Shown: positions 12,153-54,365, counted from the first letter of the stretch. The stretch is DNA of 64,000 nt from Patescibacteria group bacterium (GCA_040390125.1 JAZJYZ010000001.1:307026-371025), one strand, 5' to 3'. Numbers and translations: made by a program. The notes: generated from the sequence alone by a model not told the origin.

Positions 12153-13799
12153 ATGGTGCGCACTGTCCTCGGGGTGATGACCCGGCCAATTCGAGGCCTT
12201 CATGAAGCAGCGTATGTGCTTGCGGGTTTTTCTATACTCTCGCAGGTATTGGCACTCGTGCGAGATCGGACGTTTGCACATCTTTTTGGTGCAGGCCCCA
12301 CCTTAGATGCATATTTTGCGGCATTCAGGATTCCGGATCTTCTGTTTGCTTTCTTAACGCTTTTTGTTTCGTCCTTTGCTTTGGTGCCGCTTCTCTCAGG
12401 AAAGGATAAAGATGCTCAAGGAGTCATTGTGGGGAATGTTCTGCTTGCGTTTGGTGTAAGTGCGATTGTGGTGTGTGGCATTCTTTTCTTTGCGATGCCT
12501 ACAATCGTACCGTTTCTTTTTCCGGGGTTTCCTCCGGAGACTCTTGCAAGTACGATACTTCTTTCCCGCATCATGCTGGTTCAGCCGGTGCTATTGGGTC
12601 TTTCCTCAATAGCCACATCTGTAGTGCAGGTCCTCAGACAGTTCATCATATTTGCGCTTGCCCCGATTCTTTACAACGTCGGTATTATTGCGGGGGCACT
12701 CTTCCTATATCCGCAGTTCGGCATTACAGGTCTTGCGTGGGGCGTGGCACTTGGTGCGCTTTTGCATGTGTCTGCACAAATTATCCCGATACTCGGGCAC
12801 GCCAGGCACATCGTGCGCCCCTCATGGAATTCACTCCGTGCGTCTATTGTTGAAGTTGCCCTGCCTTCGATGCCCCGTGCGCTTGCACTTTCATCTCAGC
12901 AGGTATTGCTGTTAGTGTTTGCTTCGATTGCATCATTAACCGCAGCGGGTACCGTTTCAACACTTGCTTTTGCGTTTAATTTGCAATCAGTCCCGCTTAC
13001 CATCATTGGTGTTTCTTATGCTGCTGCAATTTTCCCAGCACTCTCCGCATTAATAGCAAAAGGCAATACGGAGCTTTTTATGCGAGAGGTATGGGCAGGC
13101 GTTCGACATATCGTCTTTTGGACATTCCCCGCCATTACGCTCATCATTGTTCTCCGTGCGCATATCGTGCGCATTATTCTTGGCACTGGAGCATTTTCAT
13201 GGGATGACACGAGGCTCACCGCTGCTGTGCTTGCGTGTTTTGCGTTTTCTCTGATCGCACAATCAGTTATACTCATATTTTCTCGGAGTTACTACGCTGC
13301 ACACTCGACCCTTGTTCCTATTGTGGTAAACGTAGGAGGCGCTATTGTTGCAGGTGCGGGTGCCTATATCGCTGTGGTGTGGCTTGCTTCAGCAGAAATG
13401 CCACGATTTTTTATTGAAGATCTCTTTCGGGTAGCAGATGTGCCAGGAACTGCCATCCTCATGATTCCTATTGTCTATTCTCTTGTAATGCTTATGGTTG
13501 CGTGCACTTTCGGCTATCTCTTCGCACGTCGTTTTGGCTTCGAGGCACGGGTGTGGCATACACTCGGCACATCTTTTGCAGCATCAGTGATAGCAGCCAC
13601 GGGTGCATACGGAGTGTTGCAGTTTTCGGCTCCGCTATTGCCGACGACTACATTCTTCGGTATCTTCACTCAAGGACTGAGTGCTGGCATTGTTGGAGGT
13701 CTCTTGTGGCTTCTTGTCCTTTTCGTTCTCAAAAGTCAGGAACTAAAGGAGATACATGGAGCGCTACTCCATTTCTTCAAGAAAGGATTGAAAGCGTAA
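12153..13799 (+). CDS. murJ: Lipid II flippase MurJ (MviN)
   Basis: 548 aa with 14 TM helices. The N-terminus GFSILSQVLALVRDRTFAHLFGAGPTLDAYFAAFRIPDLLF is diagnostic of MurJ. Confidence 0.85.
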   Translation: MVRTVLGVMTRPIRGLHEAAYVLAGFSILSQVLALVRDRTFAHLFGAGPTLDAYFAAFRIPDLLFAFLTLFVSSFALVPLLSGKDKDAQGVIVGNVLLAFGVSAIVVCGILFFAMPTIVPFLFPGFPPETLASTILLSRIMLVQPVLLGLSSIATSVVQVLRQFIIFALAPILYNVGIIAGALFLYPQFGITGLAWGVALGALLHVSAQIIPILGHARHIVRPSWNSLRASIVEVALPSMPRALALSSQQVLLLVFASIASLTAAGTVSTLAFAFNLQSVPLTIIGVSYAAAIFPALSALIAKGNTELFMREVWAGVRHIVFWTFPAITLIIVLRAHIVRIILGTGAFSWDDTRLTAAVLACFAFSLIAQSVILIFSRSYYAAHSTLVPIVVNVGGAIVAGAGAYIAVVWLASAEMPRFFIEDLFRVADVPGTAILMIPIVYSLVMLMVACTFGYLFARRFGFEARVWHTLGTSFAASVIAATGAYGVLQFSAPLLPTTTFFGIFTQGLSAGIVGGLLWLLVLFVLKSQELKEIHGALLHFFKKGLKA

Positions 13800-13845: not shown

Positions 13846-15735
13846 ATGAAAAACATTCGTAACTTTTCTATCATTGCACATATTGATCATGGTAAAAGCA
13901 CCTTAGCTGATCGCATGCTTGAGGTTACTAATACCGTGCCCCAACGCAAGATGCGTGAGCAGGTTTTGGACCAAATGGATTTGGAGCGAGAACGTGGCAT
14001 TACTATAAAAATGCAACCTGTGAGGATGGAGTACCATCCAGAGCGTAGAGGGCAGAGCGTAGAGGGTAGAGGGGATTCAGACCTCCCTGAAAGCTCAAAG
14101 CTCAAAGCTGAAAGCTCAGATTCAAAATATATTTTGAATCTGATCGACACTCCTGGACATATAGATTTTGCATACGAAGTATCTCGTGCCCTTACTGCCG
14201 TTGAGGGAGTGCTCTTGTTAGTGGATTCGACACAAGGTATTCAGGCGCAAACGTTGGCGACCCTCGCAATGGCACGGGATGCTGGGTGCGTCATCATTCC
14301 TGTGTTGTCGAAAATCGATATGCCGGCGTCCAGAGTGCCAGAAGTTCGCTCTGCCCTTGCACGTCTGCTTGATGTTGATGAGGAACAGGTATTGTCAGTA
14401 TCTGGAAAAACTGGAGAAGGAGTGTCTGAATTGCTCGCCGCTATTGTGGAGCGAATACCGCCTCCGTCTACTTCTTATCAGGCCACAGGTCAGGGCGGGC
14501 GGGCACTTGTATTTGATTTTTCATATTCGGAACATCGAGGGGTTGTAGCGTATGTGCGTGTGACTGATGGTGAAGTTAGGACTAAAGACACAATTTCTTT
14601 CATGGCAGTTGGAAAAAAGATGACTGCTCTTGAGACTGGGTGGTTAGTGCCGGCTGAGTTTCCGATTCCTGCGCTTTCTGCAGGGGATATAGGATATATA
14701 GTGACCGGCATAAAGGAGCCTGGAGTTGCGCTCGTTGGCGATACTATAAAAGCAGGAAACTCCACCTTGCCCGCCTTTGAGGGCTACAGTACCCCTAAGG
14801 CGGTGGTGTGGGCTTCTTTGTACCCTGACAGCCAAGATGGCTTTACGCTTCTAAAGCAGGCACTCTCCAGGCTTAAGCTCTCAGACGCTGCACTTTCATT
14901 TGAGGAGGATGGTTCTTCTATTCTTGGTAAAGGCTTTCGGTGCGGTTTCTTGGGAATGCTTCATATGGAAATCGTGACTGAGCGTCTGACTCGAGAATTT
15001 TCAATTACACCCGTCATCACTACGCCGTCCATTATGTATGAAGTGACAGATACAAAAGGGAAGACAGAACAAATATATACGCCAACACAATTTCCTCCAC
15101 ACGGAATGATCGCATCCGTTCGGGAGCAGTGGGTAAACATATCCATCATCACTCCTCCAACGTATCTCTCACCCATGACACAACTTTTGTATGAGTATGA
15201 GGCGACGATACATTCAGCTGACCTTTTTGGTTTGTCGGGGTATGGAGACGACAGGCTTCTTATTAAAGCTGAAATGCCACTTCGTGAATTGATGCGAGGA
15301 TTTTTCGACCGATTGAAAAGTGTGTCTTCAGGTTTTGCCTCACTCTCCTATGAGTTTGGCGACTTCCGTTCTGCCGATGTTGCAAGGCTCGATATTTTAG
15401 TGGCCGAAGAATTAGTGCCGGCGTTCTCACGTATTGTATCGACGCGTCGAGTTGAAGAGGAGGCACGAGCGTTTGTTGAAAAACTCTCAAACACCCTTCC
15501 ACGTCAGCAATTTGTTTTGAAAATACAAGCGCAAGCCGGAGGACGCATTATTGCCTCACGTTCACTTTCGGCGATACGTAAAGATGTGACGAGTGGTTTG
15601 TATGGAGGCGATGTTTCGAGAAAGAAAAAAGTGCTTGAAAAGCAGAAGAGAGGAAAAGAACGTCGAGGAGGACACGCCAAGGTGCAAATTCCCCCGGAGG
15701 TTTTTCTCAGGATGGTAAAACCGGACTCGAATTAG
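13846..15735 (+). CDS. lepA: Elongation factor 4 (LepA), carrying a repeat-derived in-frame insertion
   Basis: 629 aa. Contains IIAHIDHGKST, DTPGH and the C-terminal LepA domain. An extra ~30 aa (HPERRGQSVEGRGDSDLPESSKLKAESSDSK) lies between beta strands of the G domain. Confidence 0.92.
   Translation: MKNIRNFSIIAHIDHGKSTLADRMLEVTNTVPQRKMREQVLDQMDLERERGITIKMQPVRMEYHPERRGQSVEGRGDSDLPESSKLKAESSDSKYILNLIDTPGHIDFAYEVSRALTAVEGVLLLVDSTQGIQAQTLATLAMARDAGCVIIPVLSKIDMPASRVPEVRSALARLLDVDEEQVLSVSGKTGEGVSELLAAIVERIPPPSTSYQATGQGGRALVFDFSYSEHRGVVAYVRVTDGEVRTKDTISFMAVGKKMTALETGWLVPAEFPIPALSAGDIGYIVTGIKEPGVALVGDTIKAGNSTLPAFEGYSTPKAVVWASLYPDSQDGFTLLKQALSRLKLSDAALSFEEDGSSILGKGFRCGFLGMLHMEIVTERLTREFSITPVITTPSIMYEVTDTKGKTEQIYTPTQFPPHGMIASVREQWVNISIITPPTYLSPMTQLLYEYEATIHSADLFGLSGYGDDRLLIKAEMPLRELMRGFFDRLKSVSSGFASLSYEFGDFRSADVARLDILVAEELVPAFSRIVSTRRVEEEARAFVEKLSNTLPRQQFVLKIQAQAGGRIIASRSLSAIRKDVTSGLYGGDVSRKKKVLEKQKRGKERRGGHAKVQIPPEVFLRMVKPDSN
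14035..14127 (+). repeat. In-frame repeat insertion inside lepA (tandem agagcgtagaggg x2 plus gaaagctcaaagctcaaagctgaaagctca, followed by palindrome gattcaaaatat/atattttgaatc)
   Basis: The DNA in this segment is built of the same AGCT-rich motifs that populate intergenic regions. Its length is a multiple of 3 and it contains no stop codon. Confidence 0.6.
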
Positions 15736-16024
15736 TTTAGAGTTCCTAGTTCCTAGTTTTTCAATCAACTCTGGACTCTAAACTCAGTACTCTGAACTAA
15801 TTTCAGTACTCTGGACTAATTAAAGACTGGGAAATAGAGCAAAATCATGCTCGCAATAACCAAGACCGCCACTACGCTCCACACTATTTGGACCTTCCCT
15901 TTGTGTTTTTTATCGAACAACATAGAGGCAGTATACAATACAGAAGCTTATAGGTTCCAGCTGTCAGGTTCCAGCTTTTAATTTCAAGCTGAAAGCCGGC
16001 AGCTGAAAGCTAGAAGCTCTCTCA

Positions 16025-22763: not shown

Positions 22764-22816
22764 GCTCCCGATTTTGTTAGTGCACAGCACTTAGAAAATC
22801 GCAGTCCCCTTGGGGG
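22764..22816. repeat. 53-nt palindromic interspersed element, copy 1 (gctcccgattttgttagtgcacagcacttagaaaatcgcagtccccttgggg), embedded in the loop of a terminator-like stem (aaacccgcc...ggcgggttttttt)
   Basis: Near-identical copies lie at 40911-40962 and 49256-49308 (the latter in reverse orientation). The internal imperfect 15-bp inverted repeat is CGATTTTGTTATTGC / GCAATTAGAAAATCG. Confidence 0.7.
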
Positions 22817-22840: not shown

Positions 22841-22890
22841 TGTGTTTACACTGAGCGAGTCTGCGAGTCGAAGTGTGGTCACGAATATTT
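22841..22890. repeat. tRNA-associated motif gtgtttacactgagcgagtctgcgagtcgaagtgtggtcacgaat (family shared with 56090-56150, 56282-56320 and 19376-19400)
   Basis: A 35/37-nt match to 56282-56318, which directly abuts tRNA-Leu(TAG). Here it lies 128 bp from tRNA-Arg. Confidence 0.5.
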
Positions 22891-25492: not shown

Positions 25493-25587
25493 TCCTGTAT
25501 TCTAACGCACGAGCAGGGGCTAGTGGTCAGCGTTTAGCGTTTAGTGTCTGAATTTCTGAAACTTCACTAAACCCTAGCCACTAAACA

Positions 25588-27858
25588 CTAACCCCTAGCT
25601 TCCGGCCAGGGAGCCACTAACAAAAGCTCAGTTTCTTTTTTTGGGAGGTACGTCCAGATTTCTTCCGTGACGAATGGCATGAATGGATGCAGAAGCTTCA
25701 GGAAAAGAGTCAGTATGTAATAGAGAAGTCTTTGTCGTGATGACTTGCTTCTGGCATCCTCTCCTTTAAGTATAGGCTTTGACTCTTCAAGTATTTCGTC
25801 TGCAAACCGGTGCCAGATAAAATGATACAGAAGATCGAACGCAATATCGATGCGGAATTTTTCTATATGTTCTGAAACGTGTTTGGCGAGTACGTCTGCT
25901 TCCCGAGCGAGTGCTTCGTCGGTTTCTGTGTACGGTGCATCTGTAGTGGTTCCTCCACCATTTTCAAGTACGAATCTAGAAATATTCCATATCTTGTTTG
26001 CAAAATTCTTGTATCCACGTATCTTCTCTTCCGAAATTTTACTGTCGGTGCCAGGTGCCATTCCGGCAATCAAAGAAACACGTACAGCGTCCATTCCGTA
26101 TTTCTCTGCCATATCAAGTGGATCAATGTTATTTCCAAGAGATTTTGAAATTTTTCGTCCCTGTCCGTCACGCACAAGCCCATGAAGGTACACCTTTTTG
26201 AAAGGAACTTCATCGAGGAGGAATCCGCTCATGAGTATCATGCGTGCCACCCAGAAGAAGATAATATCGTAGCCAGTTTCAAGAATCGAGGTGGGGTGGA
26301 AGGTTTTCAGATCTTTCGTCTCATCAGGCCAGCCGAGCGTAGAAAAGGTCCACAGTCCCGATGAGAACCATGTGTCTAAAGTGTCTGGATCTTGTTCCCA
26401 TCCTTCACCCTCCGGTTTTTCTATGCTTACGCACATTTCTTCTGCGTCAGTCTCCGTAGCATGATCCCTGCGGATCCGACCAGGGGTCGCCTGTTCACTG
26501 TCCACTGATTGCTGCCCACTATTTCGGTACCAAACCGGTATTCGGTGCCCAAACCAAATTTGTCTGGAGATGCACCAATCTCGAAGATTATTGACCCAAT
26601 TGAAGTACGTTTTTTCATATCTTTCAGGTGTAATTTCGACAGCATTGCTCTCAACAGCTTCTTGCATCATTTTTTTCAAAGTCGTTTTCTTTCCATTTTT
26701 TTCAAACTCCGTATTGACCCCAACAAACCACTGTTTTTTTATTTGAGGTTCAATGATTCCACCACCGCGGCTATTTGTGGCAATGTTGTGAATGTATTTC
26801 TCGTCTATCTTCTCAATAAGACCTTTTGCTTTGAGTTTTTCAATGATGAGCGGTCTCGCTTTCTTGATGTGTTGCCCTGCTAACTCACCTGCGATAGAGA
26901 GGAGGATGCCACGATCATCTATGACTTGTTCTATATCAAGGTTGTGACGTTTTGCGATTTCGAAGTCCACCTGTGAATGTGCAGGCGTGATGGTCATGAC
27001 GCCAGAGCCCATCTCCATATCGGCCGCGTCGTCTTTAATGATGGTTGCCGTGATGGGTCCGTTAATCCATTCAAGATCTATAGTTTGTCCGTGTTTCCAC
27101 TCTTTGTAACGAGCATCATCAGGATGCATGACGACGTATTTATCGCCAAATTTTGTCTCGGGACGCACGGTGCCTATAACAAAAGGGCCGTATTTGAAGT
27201 AATAGAAGGGAACAGACTCTTCGACGTAGTCCATCTCGTCGTCTGAAACGGTTGTTTGAAGTTTAGGATCCCAGTTCACAATCCGGCTACCTCTATAGAT
27301 GAGACCGGCGTTGTACATTCGCACAAAAGCCTCCATGACGGCGTGGTATCGGCGGTCATCCATGGTGTAGGCGTACCTCGAAAAATCGAGCGATGCTCCC
27401 ACATGCTTCATTTGCTCAACAATTGTTTTTTCACTTTCTTTCACGAAGGTATCTATTCGGCTTAAAAGCTCTTCTCGGCCAAGATCATGGCGGGTTTTCT
27501 TCTCTTTTTTGTAGAGCTCGCCTTCGACTTTTGCTTGAGTGGCGATAGCCGCCGAGTCAGTGCCAGGAATCCAAAGAGCACGCTTTCCTTGCATTCGTGC
27601 ATGACGCACTAATATGTCCTCAATAACGAGCATCAACGCAGAGCCCATGTGAAGGATGCCAGTGACGTTTGGTGGTGGTAGCACCATTGAAAATGCTTCC
27701 GTACGCTCTTTTTGACCTTCGGCGCCGTTCAGAGGGGGTAAGTTGTCAGGGTTGAAGTAGCCACTCTCTTCCCAGCGAGTATATATAGAAGGTTCGGCTT
27801 CTTTAGGGTTGTAGGGTTGTAGGAATTTAGGGTCCATAAATACGATATTACTCTCCAA
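25588..27858 (-). CDS. valS: Valyl-tRNA synthetase (short form lacking the C-terminal coiled coil), with a repeat-derived in-frame insertion
   Basis: 756 aa. HMGS (HIGH-like), KISKS (KMSKS), and WCISRQIWFGHRIPVWY, which is ValRS-specific. An inserted segment NSGQQSVDSEQATPGRIRRDHATETDAEE is encoded by repeat DNA at 26443-26532. Confidence 0.85.
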   Translation of the reverse strand: MESNIVFMDPKFLQPYNPKEAEPSIYTRWEESGYFNPDNLPPLNGAEGQKERTEAFSMVLPPPNVTGILHMGSALMLVIEDILVRHARMQGKRALWIPGTDSAAIATQAKVEGELYKKEKKTRHDLGREELLSRIDTFVKESEKTIVEQMKHVGASLDFSRYAYTMDDRRYHAVMEAFVRMYNAGLIYRGSRIVNWDPKLQTTVSDDEMDYVEESVPFYYFKYGPFVIGTVRPETKFGDKYVVMHPDDARYKEWKHGQTIDLEWINGPITATIIKDDAADMEMGSGVMTITPAHSQVDFEIAKRHNLDIEQVIDDRGILLSIAGELAGQHIKKARPLIIEKLKAKGLIEKIDEKYIHNIATNSRGGGIIEPQIKKQWFVGVNTEFEKNGKKTTLKKMMQEAVESNAVEITPERYEKTYFNWVNNLRDWCISRQIWFGHRIPVWYRNSGQQSVDSEQATPGRIRRDHATETDAEEMCVSIEKPEGEGWEQDPDTLDTWFSSGLWTFSTLGWPDETKDLKTFHPTSILETGYDIIFFWVARMILMSGFLLDEVPFKKVYLHGLVRDGQGRKISKSLGNNIDPLDMAEKYGMDAVRVSLIAGMAPGTDSKISEEKIRGYKNFANKIWNISRFVLENGGGTTTDAPYTETDEALAREADVLAKHVSEHIEKFRIDIAFDLLYHFIWHRFADEILEESKPILKGEDARSKSSRQRLLYYILTLFLKLLHPFMPFVTEEIWTYLPKKETELLLVAPWPEARG
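26461..26526. repeat. Intragenic copy of the two-hairpin element (atgatccctgcggatccgaccaggggtcgcc) plus a cactgtccactg motif, in frame within valS
   Basis: The same element occurs intergenically at 43113-43142, 35796-35848, 42228-42258 and 53925-53955. The second hairpin shows compensatory changes between copies (cgacc/ggtcg vs cgatg/catcg vs cgacg/cgtcg). Confidence 0.65.
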
Positions 27859-29065
27859 GCTTTAAATTCCCAAGTGCAGACAAGTCACTCGTTTTGCTCA
27901 TGCCTCCAGCATGCCGGAGATATCCTGCAACGCCAATCATGATGGCATTGTCCCCAGTGAGACTAGAGTCGGGGAAGGCGAGAGTGACTTCTCCAAAGGA
28001 GTCATTTACTAACTCTGTAAGCGCACGTCTGATTTCTCTGTTAGCAGAGACTCCACCTCCTACCGCAAGAATTTTTGGTTTAGTTATTTCAAGTGCACGC
28101 TTTGTTTTTATGACTACAACGTCTCGTGCTGCATTTTCAAATGCTTCCGCAATCTGCTCTTTGTCGTGTTCCTCTAACTTATCCATACTGCGGAGTTTAT
28201 AGAGCACTGCCGTTTTAAGTCCTGAGAAAGAGAAATCGCACGTGTCATCGTGTGCCATGGGTCGGGGAAACGTAATCCCACTGTCTTCGCCTCTCTCTCT
28301 AGCCCGCAGTGCTGATGCGGCGATCTCCGGGCCACCCGGGTAGGGAAGCTCGAGTAAGCGTGCCACTTTGTCGAACGCTTCGCCGATGGCATCATCTTTT
28401 GTTGCTCCTACGTGTTCATAGACGAACGGTTCTTTCATCAGTACAAATTCTGTGTGTCCACCTGAAATCAAAAGAGCCAAGATGGGGAAGTGTACAGTGT
28501 TTAGTGTATAGCGTTTAGGTTGAAGAAGGACTTCGGATTTTTCTGTCCACTGTCCACTGTCCACTATTCCCTTTCCCAGTAAGGCTGACACAATATGTCC
28601 TTCCATATGATCAATACCTAGAACCGGAATATTCCAGGCTCGTCCTAGGCTTTCTGCAAAGTTAATTCCAGTCCACAGCGCAGGCTCAAGCCCTGGCCCT
28701 CTCGTTACTGCAATGAGTGCGACATCGGGCTTTTCAGTAGCGTTTAGAAAAGTTCTTACGTCATTTCTGAATGCTTCATCACGGATGTTTTTGAGAGAAT
28801 TTTCATATGTAGAAGTGTCGTCTGTTTTCTTGTTCAGTAGTCCAGATGCCTTTAGGACTTGTGTCGCAAGTGGTGCAAGGTTGCCCTGGTGCTCCCGTTT
28901 TGCAAGGTTGGGGTAAACTCCACCGTATGGAGCATGAAGCGGTGCTTGAGAGTACAAAGCATCTCCAAGAACAGTAAATGTTGCTTCTTTGAAATCGCCC
29001 TCAGCCTCAATAATGGCTACCGCCGTTTCATCGCAACTGGTTTCTATAGAGAGTATTTTCACCAT
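27848..29065 (-). CDS. tsaD: tRNA N6-adenosine threonylcarbamoyltransferase TsaD (Kae1/Gcp), carrying repeat-derived in-frame insertions
   Basis: 405 aa (typical length ~340). Contains the IETSCDET, HMEGH and GGVSAN motifs. ~22 extra aa (IVDSGQWTEKSEVLLQPKRYTLNT) lie between HMEGH and FPILALLISGGHT and are encoded by repeat DNA at 28489-28563 (tccactg x3, gtgtttagtgt, gaagtccttcttc). Confidence 0.85.
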   Translation of the reverse strand: MVKILSIETSCDETAVAIIEAEGDFKEATFTVLGDALYSQAPLHAPYGGVYPNLAKREHQGNLAPLATQVLKASGLLNKKTDDTSTYENSLKNIRDEAFRNDVRTFLNATEKPDVALIAVTRGPGLEPALWTGINFAESLGRAWNIPVLGIDHMEGHIVSALLGKGIVDSGQWTEKSEVLLQPKRYTLNTVHFPILALLISGGHTEFVLMKEPFVYEHVGATKDDAIGEAFDKVARLLELPYPGGPEIAASALRARERGEDSGITFPRPMAHDDTCDFSFSGLKTAVLYKLRSMDKLEEHDKEQIAEAFENAARDVVVIKTKRALEITKPKILAVGGGVSANREIRRALTELVNDSFGEVTLAFPDSSLTGDNAIMIGVAGYLRHAGGMSKTSDLSALGNLKLGE

Positions 29066-32687: not shown

Positions 32688-32729
32688 CGATATAGTATAA
32701 AAGTGCGACCGCACTTTTATACTATATCG
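32688..32729. repeat. 42-bp perfect palindrome cgatatagtataaaagtgcgaccgcacttttatactatatcg (copy 1; copy 2 at 35653-35694)
   Basis: The two copies differ at a single position (A/G). Together they bracket a 2.9-kb segment holding two tRNAs, an unknown HEPN-like protein gene and an alkA-like gene. Confidence 0.7.
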
Positions 32730-35652: not shown

Positions 35653-35694
35653 CGATATAGTATAAAGGTGCGACCGCACTTTTATACTATATCG
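35653..35694. repeat. 42-bp palindrome, copy 2 (cgatatagtataaaggtgcgaccgcacttttatactatatcg)
   Basis: Matches copy 1 at 32688-32729 except for one G/A difference. Confidence 0.7.
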
Positions 35695-35795: not shown

Positions 35796-35848
35796 CGTAT
35801 TATCCTCTCGGATCCGATGAGGCATTTTGGTCCCTGCGGACACGATGA
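35796..35848. repeat. Two-hairpin element, duplicated/degenerate copy (ctcggatccgatgaggcat + ggtccctgcggacacgatgaagcatcgcc), followed by the AGCT-rich repeat
   Basis: Homologous to 43113-43142. Confidence 0.5.
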
Positions 35849-35889
35849 AGCATCGCCTAAAAGCTGAAAGCTAGCACCTAGAACCTAAT

Positions 35890-37154: not shown

Positions 37155-38093
37155 TTATGAGGGTAATGTTTCTTTAAAATTTTCCTTGTAGCGAGCGGCA
37201 AGGCTCACTGGGTTGAAAATGTGTGTCTGAGTACCTCGAAGCTCAACAGTATAACAAGCGACGAGTCCTGCAAGTTTTCCTATTGTTTCGAGTGGCCAAC
37301 CTTTGAGGAGTCCGTGCATGAAGCCTGCACGATAGGCATCGCCGGCACCTGTTGGGTCAATAGTGTTTTTTGGAGTCCCTGCGGGCACTTTGATAATCAT
37401 GTTGCCTTTTCGTATTTCTGAGCCGTTTGCACCAAACGTAGTAACGAGAATTTCTGTATGCGTGAGCATGTCTTCTGCACTCCACCCCGTTTTTTTTGTA
37501 ATCAGTGCACGTTCATAGTCGTTTACGATGCACACTTTCGCACCCTCCATTCCTTTTTTAATGTCCTCATCTGAGATATTGCCAATTTGTTGGCCTGGGT
37601 CAAACATAAAAGGAATGCCGTGTGTGCGACAAAACTCAGGAATTGCACGCATGTCTTCCGGGTTACCAGGACCAACAATCACGAAGGCATCACGGTCGAT
37701 AGTACGTTCGCTCAAAGCGTAGGGGAGTTGCATGGCGCCTGGATAGAAAGCGCTGATTTGGTTGTATTTCTGGTCTGTCATCACGGTAGCGAAAGCGGTG
37801 CGGACATTTCCGTTGATGCGTATGCGTCCGGTATCAATATGACGGGATTGTAGCCAATTTTGATACGGTTCAAAATCATTGCCAGCGTTGGCAACTATGA
37901 CGGCATCGTCACCCAAGAGGGCAAGGGTGTAGGCAATGTTGCCCGCAGTGCCTCCATATGACTCTTCCAATGAGTCGACATAGAAGCTCACGTTTATGTC
38001 GTGGATTTTTTCAGGCAGGATATGATCACCAAACAGACCCTTGTAGTCCAAGATGCGGTCGTAAGCGAGAGAGCCGGAGATGAAGATACGCAT
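37155..38093 (-). CDS. PfkB-family carbohydrate/nucleoside kinase (likely adenosine kinase)
   Basis: 312 aa. [13 protein letters not shown] is the PfkB signature 2. Adjacency to ahcY suggests adenosine salvage. Confidence 0.75.
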
Positions 38094-38229
38094 AGTGAAA
38101 TAGCTTTCAGCTTTCAGGTTCCGGCTTTCAGCTTCGAATTCAGAAAAGCTGAAACCTGACAGCTGGCACCTGAAAGCTTATTCGAGCAGTTTACCTCGTG
38201 GGTTGAAAAAATAAAAGAAATCAAAGTAC

Positions 38230-39288: not shown

Positions 39289-39324
39289 CCCCCAACCCCT
39301 TTAGTTAACTAAAGGGGTTGGGGG
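39289..39324. terminator. 36-bp perfect palindrome CCCCCAACCCCTTTAGTTAACTAAAGGGGTTGGGGG; likely terminator for the minus-strand gene ending at 39379
   Basis: A perfect 17-bp stem. Confidence 0.55.
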
Positions 39325-40777: not shown

Positions 40778-40910
40778 GGTTTTTTTGAGAGGTTATTAAC
40801 TAGTTGCCTCATCATAGAGAAAATGAACTCTCGTTGCAACATTTGACTTTCTTTTCTTTTTGTATCTAAAAACTAGAGACTATCTTAAGCTTCCAGGTGT
40901 CAGCTGCCAG

Positions 40911-40962
40911 GCTCCCGGTTTTGTTATTGCATAGCAATTAGAAAATCGCAGTCCCCTTGGGG
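40911..40962. repeat. 53-nt palindromic element, copy 2 (between ftsA and ftsZ)
   Basis: gctcccggttttgttattgcatagcaattagaaaatcgcagtccccttgggg, flanked by AGCT-rich repeats. Confidence 0.7.
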
Positions 40963-41018
40963 AGTTTCAGTTTTTCTGAATTAAAGCTGAAAGCCGAAAG
41001 CTGGCAGCTAAAACCTGC

Positions 41019-42191: not shown

Positions 42192-42227
42192 TTTAGCTAG
42201 GGGGTAGGGGTTAGCGATTAGGGGATA

Positions 42228-42258
42228 GGCGACGCTTCGTCGGATCCGAAGGGATCAT
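42228..42258. repeat. Two-hairpin element, reverse orientation (ggcgacgcttcgtcggatccgaagggatcat)
   Basis: The reverse complement atgatcccttcggatccgacgaagcgtcgcc matches the family. Here hairpin 1 has loop CTTC and hairpin 2 is cgacg/cgtcg. Confidence 0.6.
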
Positions 42259-43006: not shown

Positions 43007-43112
43007 TGTGTTGTGTATTAAAGCACGGCTTAGAAGAAGCCGCAACTGAATGAAAGGTTCTAGGTGCTAGGTTCTAGCTTTAATTAAATTTTCAGAAAAG
43101 CTGTAAGCTAGC

Positions 43113-43142
43113 TGATCCCTGCGGATCCGATGAGGCATCGCC
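43113..43142. repeat. Two-hairpin element, canonical copy (tgatccctgcggatccgatgaggcatcgcc)
   Basis: Hairpin 1 is GATCC-CTGC-GGATC and hairpin 2 is CGATG-AGG-CATCG. It is flanked by AGCT-rich repeats at 43045-43110. Confidence 0.65.
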
Positions 43143-44308
43143 TAACTTCGGTGTCCTCGTGTCACGTAGTTTCCAAGTTTGTCTAAAGGTATGGTCGTCT
43201 GCACTTGGGTGGCGACGGAGCGGACTATTGCCGTGTTATCCAATGCTTCACGTTGTCCAATAATCGCAATGTATTTGGTGCCTGATGCTGTCCCTTTCTC
43301 TACTTGATCACGAAGGTTATCTGTCATAAGCGCTTGTCCTACTGCCACGTGAGCACGCCAAAGAGCCTCTAGGAGTGCGAAGGATCGAAGTTTCGCAGCA
43401 TCTCCGACGTGGACTATAAAGCAAGCTGGTTCGTCTTCGAGCGATTCAACATCGATACGTCCTTGCATTTCAATACTCATTGCTACGGCGGGCTCTGCGT
43501 GGGCGCCTCGGGCGCGCTTGGCGTATTCGTCGTAACGCCCGCCGGTTGCTATGCGCACACGTTCACCTTTTTTGTCTGTTCCTTCAATGGCAAAGAGCAG
43601 TTCTGATTCCACCCCAGGTTCTGCAATGAGGCGTGACTGAATAGAATAGGCAATACCCACTGATTCAAAAAGTGACAGCGTTGCGAGCATGGTTTTTCGG
43701 GAACTCTCTGAAAGGTAATCAATAGAGCGTGGCATCTGTTCCACTACGGGATCTTTTCGTTCGAGCATGGTGCGGTAGGCAAGATCAGGGTCGTGCGGAA
43801 CGATTGCTTTCAAATCTTCAGGTATTGCGTCGTTTCGTTTTTTGAAGAAGTTGCCGAGTTCACGTGTGAATCGTTTTCGTGATTCTGCATCTCCTACGGA
43901 GGACACCAGTACAGAAAGATCACTGAAGCCCGCCACCTCTGATATGGAGAGAGCGGTTTTTACAACTATTGCGGGTGCAATAGCGTGGCGTGTTGAGAAA
44001 ATCCCAAATGAAACTAGCGTGCCTGAACCTTTACGTGATACTCCCCAGGTTTGTATAGGGCCTTTACCACTCTCTGCAATGTTCACCAGTGCACTTGAAG
44101 CTGAAGTTTTTGCGTTAGCTCCATTACTGGCAGTTGCGAGTGCTCGTTTAGAAATGTTTGCGGGTGAACTAGTGAATCCGTATGCATAAGCAATACGTCC
44201 GATTGATTGTTCCAAAGATTCGTTCTGTTTTCCTTTTTCAAGTGAGCGCATATTTAGTAAGTAGTGAGTAGTAAGTGGAGGGTCGTGAAGAAAGAGGATG
44301 AAAAGCAA
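43142..44308 (-). CDS. Histidyl-tRNA synthetase-like protein (HisS/HisZ family, divergent N-terminal motifs)
   Basis: Contains IATGGRYDEY (HisRS motif 3) and a C-terminal anticodon-binding domain (YIAIIGQREALDNTAIVRSV). Motifs 1 and 2 are degenerate or low-complexity. The real start is probably an internal Met. Confidence 0.55.
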   Translation of the reverse strand: MLFILFLHDPPLTTHYLLNMRSLEKGKQNESLEQSIGRIAYAYGFTSSPANISKRALATASNGANAKTSASSALVNIAESGKGPIQTWGVSRKGSGTLVSFGIFSTRHAIAPAIVVKTALSISEVAGFSDLSVLVSSVGDAESRKRFTRELGNFFKKRNDAIPEDLKAIVPHDPDLAYRTMLERKDPVVEQMPRSIDYLSESSRKTMLATLSLFESVGIAYSIQSRLIAEPGVESELLFAIEGTDKKGERVRIATGGRYDEYAKRARGAHAEPAVAMSIEMQGRIDVESLEDEPACFIVHVGDAAKLRSFALLEALWRAHVAVGQALMTDNLRDQVEKGTASGTKYIAIIGQREALDNTAIVRSVATQVQTTIPLDKLGNYVTRGHRS

Positions 44309-44973: not shown

Positions 44974-45097
44974 TGTTATTCATGCAAAAATATTTTTTTC
45001 GTATACACTTTAAGGAGCTTCCAGGTTTCAGCTGTCAGGTTCCAGCTTGAATTTAAAAAGCTGAAAGCCGGTAGCTGACAGCTGAAAGCTCTGCATC

Positions 45098-46327: not shown

Positions 46328-47425
46328 TTATTTCTTCGTCTTCACAAACGAGAGCGTCATGCGGTGCTCTTTTGGTTCGAAAAGCGTAATCTTGAATGGA
46401 TATGTTTTCCCGAGGCCCAATGTTTCTCGGAGTTCAGCTTCTGAAGCGAACTCGGAGACGTGTACTAAGCCTGCAACACCTTCTTCGATAGAAGCCAATG
46501 CGCCGTATTTATTGTATTTGATGATTGCAGCGTTCACCTCGTCTTCTTTCTTGTACTTAGCAGCTGCGATAACCCATGGATCTTCCTGAAGTTGTTTCAA
46601 GGAGAGAGAAATCTTTCCGTCTTTGATGTCAATGATCTTTACTTTAATTGCCTCGTTCACTTTTGCGAATGCACGTGGATCCTCAACGAGACCCCAATCG
46701 ATTTCAGAAATATGCACCAAGCCCTCTAGACCGTCTTCAACTTTCACGAAGATGCCGAAGTCAACGACGCCAGTGACAACTCCGTCAACGACGTCGCCCA
46801 CTGCATAGCGGTCGACAAGTGTTCCCCTAGTTTCCTTTGAGGTACCTCGCTCCGAGAAGATGAGCTTTCCTTCACGAGGATCTGCAGTGATGATAGAAAC
46901 CGACATGTTGGTGCCGATGAGTTTCTTCAACTCATCCAAGATGAGTTGCTTTTCACCGTTTGCTACTCGTGGATAGTGTTCAGGTTTCAGCTGTGAGGCA
47001 GGAAGGAAGCCTTGAATACTCTGCCATGCAATGATCAGTCCACCTTTGTTTGCGTCTTTAACAGGAAGTTCAAAGACGGTTCCGGCGGCAATTGCTTTTT
47101 CAGCATCCGACCAAATCATCGCTTGACGTGCTTCCTTGAGTGAGAGTTCTATGTAGCCTTCTTTGTTGTGGCTTCCGACAATCTTTGCAGATACTGTGTC
47201 GCCCAGAGCGACTTTGCGTAGAACATCACGAGCGGAAAGATATTCACGTCCGTAAATGATGCCCGTTCCGAAAGGTGGAAGGTCTATGTAGATCTTTCCT
47301 GAACCAATGAAAATAACCGGTCCTTCGACCGTATCTCCTTCTGCTGGTGGAATGGCACTTTCAAGGAGAAGTTTCTCCATGGCCTCATTCACCACTGGCA
47401 CTACTATTTCTTTTTTCTTAGACAT
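46328..47425 (-). CDS. rpsA: 30S ribosomal protein S1 (short form, four S1 domains)
   Basis: 365 aa with repeated S1 OB-fold motifs (GTVVDGVVTGVVDFGIFVKVEDGLEGLVHISEI...). Confidence 0.85.
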   Translation of the reverse strand: MSKKKEIVVPVVNEAMEKLLLESAIPPAEGDTVEGPVIFIGSGKIYIDLPPFGTGIIYGREYLSARDVLRKVALGDTVSAKIVGSHNKEGYIELSLKEARQAMIWSDAEKAIAAGTVFELPVKDANKGGLIIAWQSIQGFLPASQLKPEHYPRVANGEKQLILDELKKLIGTNMSVSIITADPREGKLIFSERGTSKETRGTLVDRYAVGDVVDGVVTGVVDFGIFVKVEDGLEGLVHISEIDWGLVEDPRAFAKVNEAIKVKIIDIKDGKISLSLKQLQEDPWVIAAAKYKKEDEVNAAIIKYNKYGALASIEEGVAGLVHVSEFASEAELRETLGLGKTYPFKITLFEPKEHRMTLSFVKTKK

Positions 47426-47711
47426 TTAATCAGTAATCCGGCAAGCTACTTGCCGGAGAAGGTAGTAGGTAGTGGGTAGTAGGTAGTTATAAAGCTACTT
47501 ACCACTTTCTATCTTCTACATTCCGGACAAGGGTTAATCTTGTCAGAAGTGATATTAAAAAAGCTCGAAGGCTTTATGGGGGCTAGAGTATCAAAATAGA
47601 GCCCCAAACGCAAGTCTGGTTATTGCCCATTGAAATATATAGAATTGATATTCCTTGACTTTTCATAAAAAATTACTTACTCTGATTTTTAGTTATTTTT
47701 TAAATTTTTAT

Positions 47712-47921
47712 ATGACCACTACGCCAGAAGGTACACGAGTACTTACGCCAGAAGATCGCAAATTGGCTGAGGATTTTTTAAGATTCATAGCAGCTCCTAA
47801 TCTGGGTGCCCGTATAGCGGAAGCTCAGAAATGGGTGAGTGTTGGGGAAGGGATCTCACGGGTTTCTCGTGAGCTTAGGGGACCGGACACATTTCCTGAT
47901 AACTACGACCCTGAAGCCTAG
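47712..47921 (+). CDS. Hypothetical small protein, paralog A (69 aa, MTTTPEGTRVL...)
   Basis: ORF 47655 trimmed to the ATG that begins a ~39-nt block shared with paralog B (ttaaatttttatATGaccactacgccagaaggtaca). Confidence 0.4.
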   Translation: MTTTPEGTRVLTPEDRKLAEDFLRFIAAPNLGARIAEAQKWVSVGEGISRVSRELRGPDTFPDNYDPEA

Positions 47922-47948
47922 TAACTATAGTCATTGTTAAATTTTTAT

Positions 47949-48173
47949 ATGGGCACTACACCAGAAGGCACAATAGAACGAAGGCATCGGGACCGCCTAA
48001 AAGAGGATATGGATATGTTAGCTGACTGGGTGGATACTTCTGAGGCTATGGGTGAGGATATGAGTCGGGCTGATACTGTTTTGGGGTTACAATTAATCAG
48101 GGGATTTATTTTTGATGACTTAGATGCCGCAGGCATCCCTCCTCCTAGAAAGTTTCCTCCCTCTAAGCTCTAA
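47949..48173 (+). CDS. Hypothetical small protein, paralog B (74 aa, MGTTPEGTIERR...)
   Basis: Shares its 5' UTR and first 8 codons (33 of 39 nt) with paralog A. The remainder is unrelated. Confidence 0.4.
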   Translation: MGTTPEGTIERRHRDRLKEDMDMLADWVDTSEAMGEDMSRADTVLGLQLIRGFIFDDLDAAGIPPPRKFPPSKL

Positions 48174-48314
48174 GCTCTAAGCTCTAAGCTAAAAGCCCGA
48201 GGTGAGTGGGATGAAGGTGTGGGTGAAGATTGATTTTTCTCTCAACTCTAAACTAGGAACTCAGAACTCCCTCCAGTCTGTTCACTGTTCACTGTTTGCT
48301 GTACACTTGTCGGA

Positions 48315-48940: not shown

Positions 48941-49198
48941 TTGCCGAGTAAGGCATCAAAAACTCAGAGTATGTTTAAGACTCTTGCAAAATTACGTCGT
49001 GCTCCAAACGAAGTACGTCAGAATTTTACTGCGTTCATTACGGTTATTATTGTTGCCTGCATTACTCTTATATGGTTTTTCTTTTTCATCACGTCACTTT
49101 TTTCTACTGATTTTTCTAAAGGGCTCGTTCCAGCAGTTGTAGATACTCCAGCCCCCGAGACTCCAGCCCCCGCACTTGAAGCACCATTTGCAAATTAG
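48941..49198 (+). CDS. Hypothetical small membrane protein with a Pro/Ala/Thr-rich tail
   Basis: ORF with one TM helix (FITVIIVACITLIWFFFFI). Confidence 0.3.
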   Translation: MPSKASKTQSMFKTLAKLRRAPNEVRQNFTAFITVIIVACITLIWFFFFITSLFSTDFSKGLVPAVVDTPAPETPAPALEAPFAN

Positions 49199-49255
49199 CT
49201 GTTAGGTTTTAGGTGTGAGGTTTGCTGTTAAAAGCTGACAGCTGACAGCTGGAAT

Positions 49256-49308
49256 CCCCCAAGGGGACTGCGATTTTCTAATTGCTACGCAATAACAAAA
49301 TCGGGAGC
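49256..49308. repeat. 53-nt palindromic element, copy 3 (reverse orientation), upstream of gyrA
   Basis: The reverse complement gctcccgattttgttattgcgtagcaattagaaaatcgcagtccccttggggg matches copies 1 and 2. It is flanked by cagctgacagctg AGCT-rich repeats. Confidence 0.7.
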
Positions 49309-49357: not shown

Positions 49358-51826
49358 ATGGCTCGAAAGAAAGTGCAAACAGCACCTGAAGATAGCGCTC
49401 CGAAGGCCGACATGGGCCTTCGTGTCATTTCACATTCAATCGTTACTGAAATGCGTGAGTCGTACCTCGACTACGCAATGTCTGTTATTACCTCTCGTGC
49501 CTTGCCTGATGTGCGTGATGGTTTGAAGCCCGTGCATCGTCGCATTCTCTACACCATGCATCGCATGGGACTTACCGCTACATCAAAACCTCGAAAGTCT
49601 GCGGCGGTGGTTGGAGATGTCTTGGGTAAATACCATCCGCATGGCGACAGTGCTGTGTATGAAGCAATGGTAAAGATGGCGCAGAACTTCACCATGCGCT
49701 ACCCGCTTATTATCGGACAAGGAAACTTCGGTTCTATCGATGGCGACTCTGCAGCTGCTATGCGTTACACCGAAGCGAAGATGTCAAAACTTTCTGCTGA
49801 TCTTCTTTCTGACCTCGATAAAGACACCGTTGAATGGCGTCCAAACTACGATGGTACCCAAAAGGAACCTAACGTTCTTCCCGCAGGAGTTCCCAATATT
49901 CTTTTGAATGGAACCTTGGGTATTGCGGTGGGTATGGCAACGAATGTGCCTCCCCACAACCTTGGCGAAGTGGTAGATGCCACCGTGCATCTTATTGATA
50001 ATCCTGATGCATCGGTTGATGAGCTTTTGCAATTTGTTCAAGGGCCTGATTTCCCGATCGGAGGCATTGCATTTAACTCGAAAGATATTGCACACGCATA
50101 CGCAACAGGTCGTGGGCCTGTGGTTGTGCGAGGTAACGCAGAAATTACTGAAGACAAGAAAGGTAACAACATCATTCTTATTACGTCTATTCCGTATCGT
50201 GTAAACAAAGCCGACCTCATCATAAACATCGCAGACTTGGTGCGTGATAAAAAACTCGAAGGGGTGCGAGACCTCCGTGATGAATCAACCACCGACATTC
50301 GTGTTGTCGTGGAGTTGAAAAATAACGCCCAGCCGCAGCAGGTGTTGAATTATCTCTACAAACACACCCAGCTTGAGGATGCTTTTCACTACAACATGGT
50401 GCTTTTGGTGGATGGCGTTCCTGAAACACTTTCACTCTCGGCGGTTCTTTCACACTTCATCGAGCACAGAAAGGTTGTTGTAAAACGACGCACGGAGTTT
50501 GATTTGAGACGTGCCCAAGAGCGAGAGCATATTTTGCTCGGACTTAAAAAAGCACTTGATCATATCGATGAAATCATCAAAGTAATTAAGGCTGCAAAAG
50601 ATGTGCAGGGTGCACATGCTGACCTTCAAAAGAAGTTCAAATTCTCTGAGCGCCAAGCTACAGCAATTCTTGAAATGCGTCTGCAAAAACTTGCGGGCTT
50701 GGAGCGGAAGAAAATTGAGGATGAATTAAAGGAGATACAGGCACTCATCAAGGAGTTAGAAGAGATACTTTCTTCAACAAAGAAGATAATGAAGGTCGTT
50801 AAGACCGAACTTTTGGCACTTCGTGAAAAGTATGCGGATGAGAGACGCACCAAAATTGTGAAGGGTGGCATTAAAAATATGTCAGATGAAGATTTGATTC
50901 CTGACGAAGCAGCGATGCTCACTCTTACTTCTACTGGTTACGTAAAGCGCACATCCCCAAGCGAATATAAGAAGCAAAATCGAGGCGGTGTGGGCGTGAT
51001 TGATTTGAATACAAAAGAAGAAGACTTCGTTACTCGGTTCTTAGAGGGCTCGACACATGATTCAGTGCTCTTTTTCTCAGACAGGGGAAAGGTGTACCGA
51101 ACACGCATGTATGAAGTGCCTGAAGGTAGGCGTGCCACCAAGGGTAAATCAATAATGAATGTGCTCCCGCTATCTGCTGAAGAGCGTATTACGTCTATCG
51201 TTGCGTTGACTAAAAAATCCGCAACTTCTTCTTTCATGTTGGTGACCGAAAAAGGTGCAGCAAAGAAAGTGAAGGCGGATCAGTTTGAAGATGTACGTCG
51301 TTCAGGAATTATTGCGATGTCGCTCCAGACGGGGGACAGTTTGATTGCGGTGTTGCCCGTAGAGAAAGGAGATAGCGTTATTTTGGTAACCGCAGGAGGG
51401 CAGGCAATTCGGTTTAAAGAGTCTGACATTCGTGAGATGGGACGAACGGCTGGGGGAGTGCGGGGAATGAAGTTTGGTACCAAAGACAAAATAATCGCTG
51501 CCGATGTGATTAAGAGCGAGAAGGAGAGTGAAATACTCGTTCTTGCTGATATGGGCTATGGCAAGCGTACACCTGCGAAGGAATACAAAATACAAAAGCG
51601 TGGTGGCTCGGGTATTAAGACAGGAAAAGTAACACCAAAAACTGGCAGTATCATCGCCGCTCGTGTAGTTACTCCAGAGATGGCAGAAATAATTGTTGCC
51701 TCAAAAAATGGACAAGTGATTCGAACTGAACTTTCACAAGTGCCGACGCTTTCACGCGCAACACAAGGAGTTCGTATCATGAAGCTTCGTGAGGGAGATA
51801 AAATTGCGGCGTTCACTGCGTTTTAG
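49358..51826 (+). CDS. gyrA: DNA gyrase subunit A
   Basis: 822 aa. The N-terminus [26 protein letters not shown] and the active-site region AAMRYTE are present. The C-terminal beta-pinwheel carries a GyrA-box-like QNRGGVG. Confidence 0.93.
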
Positions 51827-54347: not shown

Positions 54348-54365
54348 TTTCCTCGGTATGCAGGT

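Follow-up and report, generated by a model that had tools for sequence, protein, structure and literature searches.

In-frame insertions of seven-nucleotide-periodic hairpin repeats in lepA, valS and tsaD of a Patescibacteria genome

How does a conserved housekeeping gene come to carry repeat DNA in the middle of its reading frame? The question is raised by a 64,000-nt stretch from a Patescibacteria group bacterium (GCA_040390125.1, JAZJYZ010000001.1:307026-371025; hereafter the window, or WIN), in which lepA (elongation factor 4, EF4), valS (valine-tRNA ligase, ValRS) and tsaD each encode an extra segment. An earlier note on this DNA, made from the sequence alone, had taken the segments for selfish elements that insert into open reading frames (ORFs), analogous to the Rickettsia palindromic elements (RPEs). 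Alignments confirmed that all three segments are in frame, free of stop codons, located between conserved motifs and missing from one or more close relatives, and the repeat strings quoted for the three genes were present at their loci. We propose that the segments are probably translated in-frame insertions of the lineage's own dispersed hairpin repeats, which would have arisen by slippage and template switching and passed a selection filter.

The nearest public genomes were metagenome-assembled genomes of Patescibacteria (Paceibacteria), namely L001 (GCA_004322365.1), L007 ('Greene0714_7') and L005; here, L-numbers denote fetched loci and P-numbers fetched proteins. DNA identity gave the topology (WIN,(L001,(L007,L005))), with about 75% identity between the window and each of the three genomes and 87.5% between L001 and L007. 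The gene order, lepA followed by valS-tsaD, is conserved in the window and its nearest genomes. In DNA and protein alignments against L001, lepA is longer by 25 codons (75 nt), valS by 26 codons (78 nt), and tsaD by 15 codons (45 nt). An unbiased comparison of the window with its relatives, covering about 17 orthologous proteins and about 5,000 aligned residues, detected no other insertion or deletion of four or more amino acids. The three encoded peptides (15-26 amino acids) are mutually unrelated. In all three genes, the in-frame N-A-G triplets are CAG or AAG only, with TAG restricted to frames 1 and 2.

The repeats to which these segments relate are dispersed over the whole window. Self-similarity of at least 22/28 at lag 7 was found at 75 positions, and at none for lags 5, 6, and 8-13. 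The constant feature of these arrays in the clade of the window is an AG every 7 nt: runs of at least five AG at this spacing occur 28 times (none at spacing 6 or 8), and runs of at least four occur 41 times, mostly in intergenic regions. In the heptamer unit, N-A-G is followed by four bases that vary (CAGCTTT, TAGCTTC, AAGCTGA, CAGTGGA, TAGTGTT, etc.), and two arrays typically form the two arms of a long intergenic hairpin. Perfect hairpins with arms of at least 12 nt numbered 17 in the window, compared to none in 30 shuffles. In 1.8 Mb of related loci, 99 period-7 arrays were detected, versus 0-10 for other periods; 60 of the 97 that could be classified lie inside long ORFs, in a sample biased towards lepA. 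In the coding parts of the window, a strong period-7 signal is confined to the two lepA arrays and the tsaD array.

A second component is a module of two hairpins with the consensus TAG-GCGAYG-YYT-CRTCG-GATCC-GMAG-GGATC-A. Five near-identical copies, one of them in valS, are present in the 64 kb, and further copies were found in L001 and L007. The module comes after an array at 53920, 42223, 43147(-) and 35862(-), as well as in L001 and L007. In an alignment of seven copies, 98.6% of cells were paired and three pairs were compensatory, a result matched by 1 of 500 shuffles.

The clearest case is lepA, whose insertion maps between residues 70 and 74 of Thermus thermophilus EF4, in the turn between the strands preceding DTPGH; the whole expanded loop spans 14035-14127. 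In an AlphaFold model, strands were placed at residues 57-63 and 95-102, and residues 70-91 had a predicted local distance difference test (pLDDT) score below 50. The rest of the G domain was mostly of high confidence, with residues 13-16, 44-46, and 51-54 also below 50. The model indicates that residues 70-91 may form a disordered excursion at the tip of a beta-hairpin.

At the DNA level, the lepA insertion has three hairpins (Table 1). In the 5' junction hairpin, the left arm consists of the host's own Arg-Met codons, and the right arm is their reverse complement, encoding the insert-initial 'HP'. The left array reads CAG as its in-frame unit, with TAG out of frame only; in it, agagcgtagaggg occurs in two tandem copies (14040 and 14054) followed by a third, degenerate unit. 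Single-mismatch copies of agagcgtagaggg at 25370 and 58224 were dismissed as isolated 13-mers in normal coding sequence. The two arrays are joined by ATTCAGA CCTCCCT G, and four AAGCTCA/AAGCTGA heptamers (14090-14118) follow. The palindrome at the 3' junction, already noticed before, is real and longer than had been recorded: its right arm consists of the host codons for Y-I-L-N-L, and its left arm encodes the insert-terminal S-D-S-K-Y. The ends of the insert pair with the host flanks and not with each other. The insert folds with z = -4.45, and none of 200 shuffles was equally stable. As a control for similarity to other sites, 300 coding 90-mers drawn at random gave BLAST scores that averaged 12 and did not exceed 16. 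With a best off-site score of 20, the lepA insert exceeded all 300; its matches were the intergenic arrays at 51884, 61963, 42710, and 48156 (scores 17-20).

The same codons are occupied in many other lineages. Among the best 120 homologues of LepA, about 30% have an expanded loop of 12-47 amino acids at the exact lepA site. Metagenomes were scanned with a DNA pattern for the 3' junction in which two purines and two pyrimidines were left free and the upstream frame was unconstrained. All 52 contigs retrieved were lepA genes with an insert, and the frame from GITIK to DTPGH was open in 52 of 52, which argues for translation of the inserts, given that the pattern was blind to frame. Among 41 distinct inserts, the strongest DNA autocorrelation was at lag 7 in 40. 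The units themselves are lineage-specific (e.g. CGAAATC, CATTCAG, CACATTC, and AAATTGA) and lack the conserved AG in other lineages; only the 7-nt period is common to inserts of different lineages. The architecture consists of three hairpins, i.e. the 5' junction, the central heptamer arrays, and the 3' palindrome, giving the order host flank, its inverted copy, heptamer hairpin, inverted copy of the other flank, and that flank.

Both junctions follow the sequence of the host gene. At the 5' hairpin, the insert opens with the reverse complement of the host V-R-M-x-Y/W codons and pairs with them. Stems of 7-14 bp were present in 14 of 41 inserts, compared to 2.2 expected by permutation, with perfect 14-bp stems in L071, L085, L116, and L133, and these stems track each host's own codons. 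For the 3' palindrome, the two free pairs in 40 distinct sequences, a sample ascertained with a pattern that fixed the rest of the stem, were GA/TC (33), AA/TT (3), AG/CT (1), GG/CC (1), and GA/TT (2, with a G.T pair); no other combination was seen in these 40. Hence, an insert codon that changes non-synonymously (K, E, G, or R) covaries with synonymous sites of the host Ile/Leu codons. The units of the right arm are often similar to AGATTCA, the inverted host heptamer.

Presence of the lepA insert is patchy. On a crude neighbour-joining tree of 222 LepA sequences, calculated with the loop removed, loop expansion required at least 34 gains or losses, and the 15 nearest LepA relatives of the window all lack an insert. 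At the DNA level, the window's insert is nonetheless homologous to the insert of L003, a locus of 62% GC that encodes a LepA of 63% identity. Third-position identity between the two reached 0.77-0.80 within the insert, fell to 0.47 over the following 57 codons, and was 0.24-0.30 in the rest of the gene; for the region downstream of the insert, other high-GC genomes gave 0.30-0.33. These values imply that either the element or a gene segment was transferred, or that the nucleotide sequence is under constraint. The raised synonymous identity to L003 at lepA codons 93-150 may mark a recombination tract, with which the insert would have passed from one lineage to another.

A second hotspot is located in domain II of LepA, between VGDT and LPGY (about residues 300-345). 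It is filled with heptamer arrays in at least eight lineages (L087, L091, L103, L108/L121, L111/L134, L124, L126, and L135) and is empty in the window. The two LepA sites of L108 encode MPNAKCQMLNEKGPFSIQHSSFNIS and MPNAKCQMPNEKQQFSIHHSAFIIQHSSFSIT, and in L108/L121 the same units occur at both sites. Likewise, L071, L090, and L096 each have one unit common to lepA and another ORF of that genome. Such genome-specific units in different sites and genes of one genome indicate copying between sites. As a separate observation, the loop of the LepA homologue P0040, HSGGPEQSEGQVRMPYTHSGGPEHSEGQEY, looks as if the host VRMxY strand had been duplicated in tandem and a short GC-rich insert added, which would be another route of expansion at the lepA site.

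In valS, the insertion combines both repeat components. Orthologues of ValS and TsaD were sought in the lepA loci, with tblastn matches in about 40 loci, from which 13 ValS and 35 TsaD loops could be parsed; structural positions in these two proteins were assigned by sequence alignment to solved structures only. Twelve of the 13 related ValS loops measure 21-25 amino acids, compared to 48 in the window. The remaining loop, that of L027, has 47 amino acids, is rich in cysteine, and may bind zinc. The position corresponds to a variable segment between IPxWY and DTWFSS, where T. thermophilus ValRS has its own CxxC...CxxC segment. Within the insert, an array is followed by hairpin 2 and hairpin 1, in the order and orientation of the four intergenic copies in the window; the element gatccctgcggatccgaccaggggtcgcc lies at 26463-26491. 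Both stems of the module are preserved by compensatory changes, among them a G-C to C-G flip found in this copy alone, and an in-frame CAG stands exactly where six of six intergenic copies have TAG. Over 24 nt, the valS array matches the intergenic array at 48278-48301 with 91.7% identity. The best off-site BLAST score of the insert (21) was higher than that of 300 of 300 controls, with matches to the module copies at 42227, 53936, and 43113 and to the array at 48278.

The tsaD insertion is less clear-cut. The expanded loop maps between residues 121 and 124 of E. coli TsaD, after HMEGH, and the gap relative to L001 is 28526-28570 (15 codons). The motif cactgtccactg is present in both valS (26496) and tsaD (28548). 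The repeat described earlier as 'tccactg x3' is in fact GTCCACT x3 (TCCACTG x2 plus TCCACTA). The tsaD insert is not specific to the window's genome: L007 has a homologous one, so that loops of 39-40 amino acids occur in the window and L007, versus 24-25 in L001 and most Patescibacteria. In arm 1, the window has a perfect (CAGTGGA)x3 that is degenerate in L007. Since 25 amino acids is the normal length for the class, the state of the window and L007 is an insertion, and the sharing of it with a sister genome makes it older than the other two. Given the topology, the insertion may either predate the split of the window and L007, with loss in L001, or have been exchanged. The idea that the L001 loop holds a different heptamer insertion (AGCTTTC units) was rejected, its 25 amino acids being the normal class length; the AGCTTTC similarity covers a short stretch and could be a remnant or due to chance. 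Three arrays occur in L027 TsaD, of which one occupies the loop that holds the window's insert. The best off-site BLAST score of the tsaD insert, 14, equals the 95th percentile of the controls and is not significant. By best match, the similarity to other repeats thus exceeds all controls for lepA and valS and is not significant for tsaD. The motif gaagtccttcttc, thought to link the tsaD insert to a tRNA-Leu element, had one single-mismatch match (56123), about as expected by chance. What corresponds to this 'tRNA-Leu element' is a 37-nt repeat family (22842-22878, 56084-56120, and 56280-56316; two copies adjoin tRNA-Leu(TAG)) that is unrelated to the heptamer arrays. A second extra TsaD segment relative to the E. 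coli protein, of about 34 amino acids (NKKTDDTSTYENSLKNIRDEAFRNDVRTFLNATEKP; 28726-28834, residues 78-113), is common to L001 and hence older, and is not obviously repeat-encoded.

Table 1. Genes, insertions and repeat features of the window, with positions counted from its first letter
Feature	Position	Strand	Details
lepA (EF4)	13846-15735	+	TIGR01393, 687.6 bits, above NCBIfam equivalog cut-off; PDB EF4 alignment
lepA insertion, 25 codons by gap placement, HPERRGQSVEGRGDSDLPESSKLKA	14035-14109	+	absent from L001, L005, L007
lepA 5' junction hairpin, GGATGG-AGTA-CCATCC	14024-14039	+	folds
lepA left array, CAGAGCG TAGAGGG CAGAGCG TAGAGGG TAGAGGG	14039-14075	+	period-7 score 22/28; AG run of 5
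lepA right array, CCTCCCT G AAAGCTC AAAGCTC AAAGCTG AAAGCTC	14084-14122	+	period-7 score 23/28
lepA 3' junction palindrome, perfect, 28 nt, TCAGATTCAAAATA / TATTTTGAATCTGA	14116-14143	+	
valS (valine-tRNA ligase)	25588-27858	-	NF004349, 857.6 bits, above NCBIfam equivalog cut-off; PDB 1GAX alignment
valS insertion, 26 codons, NSGQQSVDSEQATPGRIRRDHATETD	26446-26523	-	absent from L001, L007
valS array, sense, TAGTGGG CAGCAAT CAGTGGA CAGTGAA CAGGCGA	26487-26521	-	5-unit AG-phase run; in-frame CAG
valS two-hairpin module copy, CAG-GCGACC-CCT-GGTCG + GATCC-GCAG-GGATC-A	26462-26493	-	
tsaD	27848-29065	-	TIGR03723, 318.5 bits, above NCBIfam equivalog cut-off; PDB alignments
tsaD expanded loop, 40 amino acids between HMEGH and SGGHT	28489-28575	-	most relatives 24-25 amino acids
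tsaD arm 1, sense, AAGGGAA TAGTGGA CAGTGGA CAGTGGA CAGAAAA	28539-28573	-	period-7 score 23/28
tsaD arm 2, 6-unit NAG-N4 array on antisense strand	28488-28530	+	imperfect hairpin partner for arm 1
Intergenic heptamer-array hairpin	51821-51934	+	starts at gyrA TAG stop; -66.8 kcal/mol, z = -10.1
Intergenic heptamer-array hairpin	15940-16024 (array listed 15942-16024)		fold z = -4.5
Intergenic heptamer-array hairpin	38092-38179		
Intergenic heptamer-array hairpin	40885-41018		
Intergenic heptamer-array hairpin	45013-45093		
Intergenic heptamer-array hairpin	25514-25597		
Intergenic heptamer-array hairpin	48153-48308		
Intergenic heptamer-array hairpin	61950-61999		
Intergenic array + two-hairpin module copy	53920-53955	+	reference copy
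Intergenic array + two-hairpin module copy	42223-42258	+	
Intergenic array + two-hairpin module copy	43112-43147	-	
Intergenic array + two-hairpin module copy	35827-35862	-	
Stop-phased array	15733-15761		
Stop-phased array	25563-25597		
Stop-phased array	49196-49224		
Stop-phased array	51824-51866		
Stop-phased array	24256 region		

Intergenic arrays are also arranged with respect to gene ends. In five genes, including lepA, valS, and gyrA, arrays start exactly at a TAG stop codon and in phase with it; five other genes have arrays in phases other than that of the stop codon. Many arrays end 3-6 nt upstream of the next start codon. For the arrays 3' of the lepA and valS stops, the TAG every 7 nt is kept in the window, L001, and L007, and the 4-nt spacers have fully diverged. 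This suggests selection on the motif, e.g. to provide stops in three frames or a binding site. The stop-anchored arrays resemble the TAACTGA arrays of Beggiatoaceae.

How such DNA could enter and persist in genes may be pictured as follows. Heptamer arrays would grow and shrink through 7-nt replication slippage, the process to which the over-representation of heptanucleotide simple sequence repeats (SSRs) in prokaryotes has been attributed (PMC4679880, PMC4692102). Hairpin DNA may promote template switching, either by fold-back copying of the adjacent strand or by copying from another repeat, which would both seed new copies and keep hairpin arms complementary; template switching is known to homogenise the arms of inverted repeats (PMC8604942, PMC7202029). 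The ends of the lepA insert, being reverse complements of the host flanks, speak for template switching or selection on structure and not for a cut-and-paste process. Genic copies would then survive only if (i) their length is a multiple of three; (ii) their in-frame N-A-G units are CAG or AAG and not TAG; and (iii) they sit at the tips of surface loops, where about 25 disordered hydrophilic residues would presumably be harmless. Such a filter, perhaps together with a structural target preference, could produce the recurrent hotspots in the LepA beta2-beta3 turn, the LepA domain-II loop, and the TsaD loop following HMEGH. We infer both slippage with template switching as the generator and the tolerance or neutrality of the peptides.

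Several observations weigh against this explanation. The covariation at the junctions is equally expected from selection on RNA or DNA structure. The folds of the valS insert (z = -0.18, its two small hairpins nonetheless covarying) and of the tsaD insert (z = -1.69, weak) do not go significantly beyond shuffles, and what ties the tsaD insert to the other repeats is its periodicity alone. The third-position identity of 77-80% between the lepA inserts of the window and L003, versus about 0.25-0.30 elsewhere, suggests horizontal transfer or nucleotide-level selection and is not predicted by simple local slippage. The TAG retained every 7 nt in the orthologous intergenic arrays of three genomes looks like selection on a motif. 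Finally, a mobilising enzyme may exist, the survey having covered 64 kb and, by Pfam scan, 30 of the window's approximately 65 ORFs. Those scanned, including the genes that flank repeats, were ordinary housekeeping genes, with no transposase, REP-associated tyrosine transposase (RAYT; REP, repetitive extragenic palindromic sequence), HutP-like protein, or other candidate binder among them.

Some of these points would be accommodated if the hairpins and NAG-N4 arrays were functional RNA, i.e. sites for an oligomeric HutP- or TRAP-type RNA binder, or structures for processing or translation coupling, with the coding copies as selected regulatory features. HutP binds XAG triplets with 4-nt spacers (PMC2425495), and TAACTGA arrays at stop and start codons have been proposed to be regulatory (PMC4679880). 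Stop-phased arrays in five genes, arrays ending just before start codons, the conserved post-stop TAG, compensatory changes in junction hairpins and in the two-hairpin module, and the conserved synonymous sites of the lepA insert would all be in keeping with such a role. Yet no single motif is conserved, the units of other lineages (CGAAATC, CATTCAG) lacking the AG; presence is patchy, with at least 34 changes and no inserts in the closest relatives; the scanned ORFs include no HutP homologue, and an Rfam scan of the window returned tRNAs only, the repeats matching no family; and arm covariation is also a product of template switching. We thus retain a regulatory RNA, and the HutP/TRAP binder with it, as a minor alternative that is rather unlikely. 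A classical non-autonomous element of the miniature inverted-repeat transposable element (MITE) or REP type, mobilised in trans and preferring hairpin-prone targets, seems less probable still. It would account for a dispersed family with five near-identical modules in 64 kb and copies in sister genomes, for homologous arrays that occupy two positions in a single gene or lie in separate genes of the same genome, and for the closeness of the window's lepA insert to that of a distant lineage. However, no terminal inverted repeats or consistent target-site duplications were seen in the alignments, which were inspected by reading and not by a dedicated search; the only candidate is a 5-nt GAAAT repeat flanking the valS insert. 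The ends copy the host flanks instead of presenting fixed termini, and sequences are unconserved between lineages except for the 7-nt period. The selfish element that inserts itself, as the earlier note had it, is therefore unproven.

The inserts could, on the other hand, be ordinary ancestral variable loops, or local triplet-compatible expansions on which selection acted at the protein level, their likeness to repeats being coincidental, or artefacts of assembly. Loop length does vary across bacteria, as illustrated by the CxxC segment of T. thermophilus ValRS and by the differing TsaD loops of E. coli and Patescibacteria, and the tsaD insert, common to L007, evolves like coding sequence. Against this stand a DNA period of 7 and not 3, the absence of inserts from sister genomes, repeat similarity of lepA and valS above all controls, and, for lepA, third-position conservation together with stem covariation. 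Moreover, the lepA segments of other lineages are 7-nt-periodic hairpin DNA as well and are phylogenetically patchy, as ancestral loops with unrelated nucleotide sequence would not be. For lepA and valS the ancestral-loop explanation is already contradicted, and overall we give it very little credence; an assembly artefact is ruled out because the same architecture recurs in more than 50 independent assemblies. An intron or intein was likewise discarded: there is no Rfam family besides tRNAs and there are no splicing motifs, the inserts measure 15-26 amino acids, and the open frame is universal. Translated insertion of the lineage's own hairpin repeats thus remains the explanation that we favour. 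It is possible, though we would sooner doubt than assert it, that Paceibacteria harbour self-propagating 7-nt-periodic hairpin DNA that repeatedly colonises LepA and TsaD codons, copies the host flanks in inverted form, is always translated, is maintained at the nucleotide level, and is occasionally exchanged between distant lineages.

Over about 5,000 aligned residues, it is repeat DNA and not point mutation that lies behind every sizeable difference in protein length from the nearest relatives, and the genes affected (a translational GTPase, an aminoacyl-tRNA synthetase, and the synthase of N6-threonylcarbamoyladenosine, t6A) are among the most conserved. Unexplained insertions in proteins and rRNAs are common in the Candidate Phyla Radiation (CPR). 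Selfish DNA inside coding genes, known mainly from Rickettsia, would be extended to this group. The lepA site represents a natural experiment, with dozens of independent or rapidly turning-over inserts of one architecture, and raises the questions of how hairpin DNA grows, why steps of 7 nt are preferred, and whether covariation reflects template switching or RNA function. A practical consequence is that, in CPR genomes, inserts of this kind can lead both gene callers and phylogenies built on alignments astray. If the repeats were indeed self-propagating, they would constitute a new hairpin-DNA route to protein insertions or a new class of structured element in coding mRNA.

Other repeats were noted in the window. 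Three copies (22764-22816, 40911-40962, and 49256-49308) of about 92% identity were found of a third dispersed module, GCTCCCGATTTTGTTAGTGCACAGCACTTAGAAAATCGCAGTCCCCTTGGGGG, which is about 53 nt long, has hairpins within it, and lies between heptamer arrays. Intergenic perfect palindromes with arms of 18-25 nt were found at 56619-56672, 32688-32729 and 35653-35694, 2742-2779, and 39289-39324; one of them adjoins tRNA-Lys, and one 42-nt palindrome occurs twice, about 3 kb apart. Four-unit AG-phase runs in murJ (13293-13320), in rpsA (46974-47002), and at 61548-61576 were set aside, their count corresponding to chance expectation; the rpsA run encodes LPASQLKPE in an S1-like protein and was judged, without a homologue check, to be ordinary coding sequence and not an insert. 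Three paralogous small ORFs with type IV secretion system (T4SS) pilin domains (TrbC/VirB2-like) are located at 53982-55672, and a 146-nt direct repeat (54952/55418) lies within this region. The 3' end of tRNA-Ser(GGA) (2540-2566) is repeated 174 nt downstream (2714-2740) with 81% identity, a pattern typical of the integration site of a mobile element. Two adjacent small ORFs (47655-47921 and 47934-48173) have similar 5' regions and no Pfam match.

Our searches of open-access text turned up no account of such elements from Patescibacteria, and the closest comparison is that with RPEs, palindromic repeats located both between and inside genes (Ogata et al. 2000, via PMC10969869). The two have in common a dispersed palindromic family that is intergenic as well as inside unrelated housekeeping genes, in-frame and stop-free insertions at fold-compatible positions, presence that varies between related genomes and is lacking in orthologues, and no known associated transposase. 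RPEs have a length of about 100-150 bp and a fixed consensus, whereas the elements of the window measure 75-78 nt and consist of degenerate 7-nt units without a conserved peptide. Further differences are the filling of the same lepA codons in dozens of lineages, ends that reverse-complement the host flanks, and the host phylum, Patescibacteria; the comparison is one of features and not of RPE sequences. As a functional analogy the proposed likeness is apt, because the inserts are the sole insertions or deletions of at least four amino acids, are in frame, and are made of intergenic repeat material; membership in the RPE family does not follow, in view of size, fixed consensus, and conserved peptide.

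With the heptanucleotide SSRs of cyanobacteria, Xanthomonas (GGGAATC), and Beggiatoaceae (TAACTGA), the arrays share a 7-nt unit that is over-represented and mostly intergenic, overlap with stop codons, ends a few bases before start codons, and rapid turnover at the same sites in close relatives (PMC4692102, PMC4679880). They differ in that their units are degenerate, with two to three conserved and about four free bases in place of a single near-perfect unit, and in that they form inverted hairpin arms combined with a separate structured module. Moreover, they lie inside the cores of essential proteins, whereas TAACTGA repeats in ORFs are found mainly at protein termini (PMC4679880). The XAG-N4 pattern of HutP sites (as defined in PMC2425495) is present in the clade of the window only. 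Enterobacterial REP sequences and bacterial interspersed mosaic elements (BIMEs) resemble the repeats as mosaics of short intergenic hairpin modules beside housekeeping genes in variable combinations; however, REPs are extragenic by definition and have no 7-nt periodic arms, and no RAYT accompanies the repeats of the window among the scanned ORFs. The repeats of Borgs (PMC9879509) are likewise fast-evolving tandem repeats of independent origins that encode disordered hydrophilic protein segments, but are direct repeats and not hairpins, and belong to an archaeal extrachromosomal element. Template-switch mutation at quasipalindromes (PMC7202029, PMC8604942) is documented for small corrections of existing inverted repeats, and not for translated insertions of 75-150 nt or for recurrence at one site across a bacterial class; in making arms complementary and in causing multinucleotide coding changes, it fits the host-templated junction hairpins described here.

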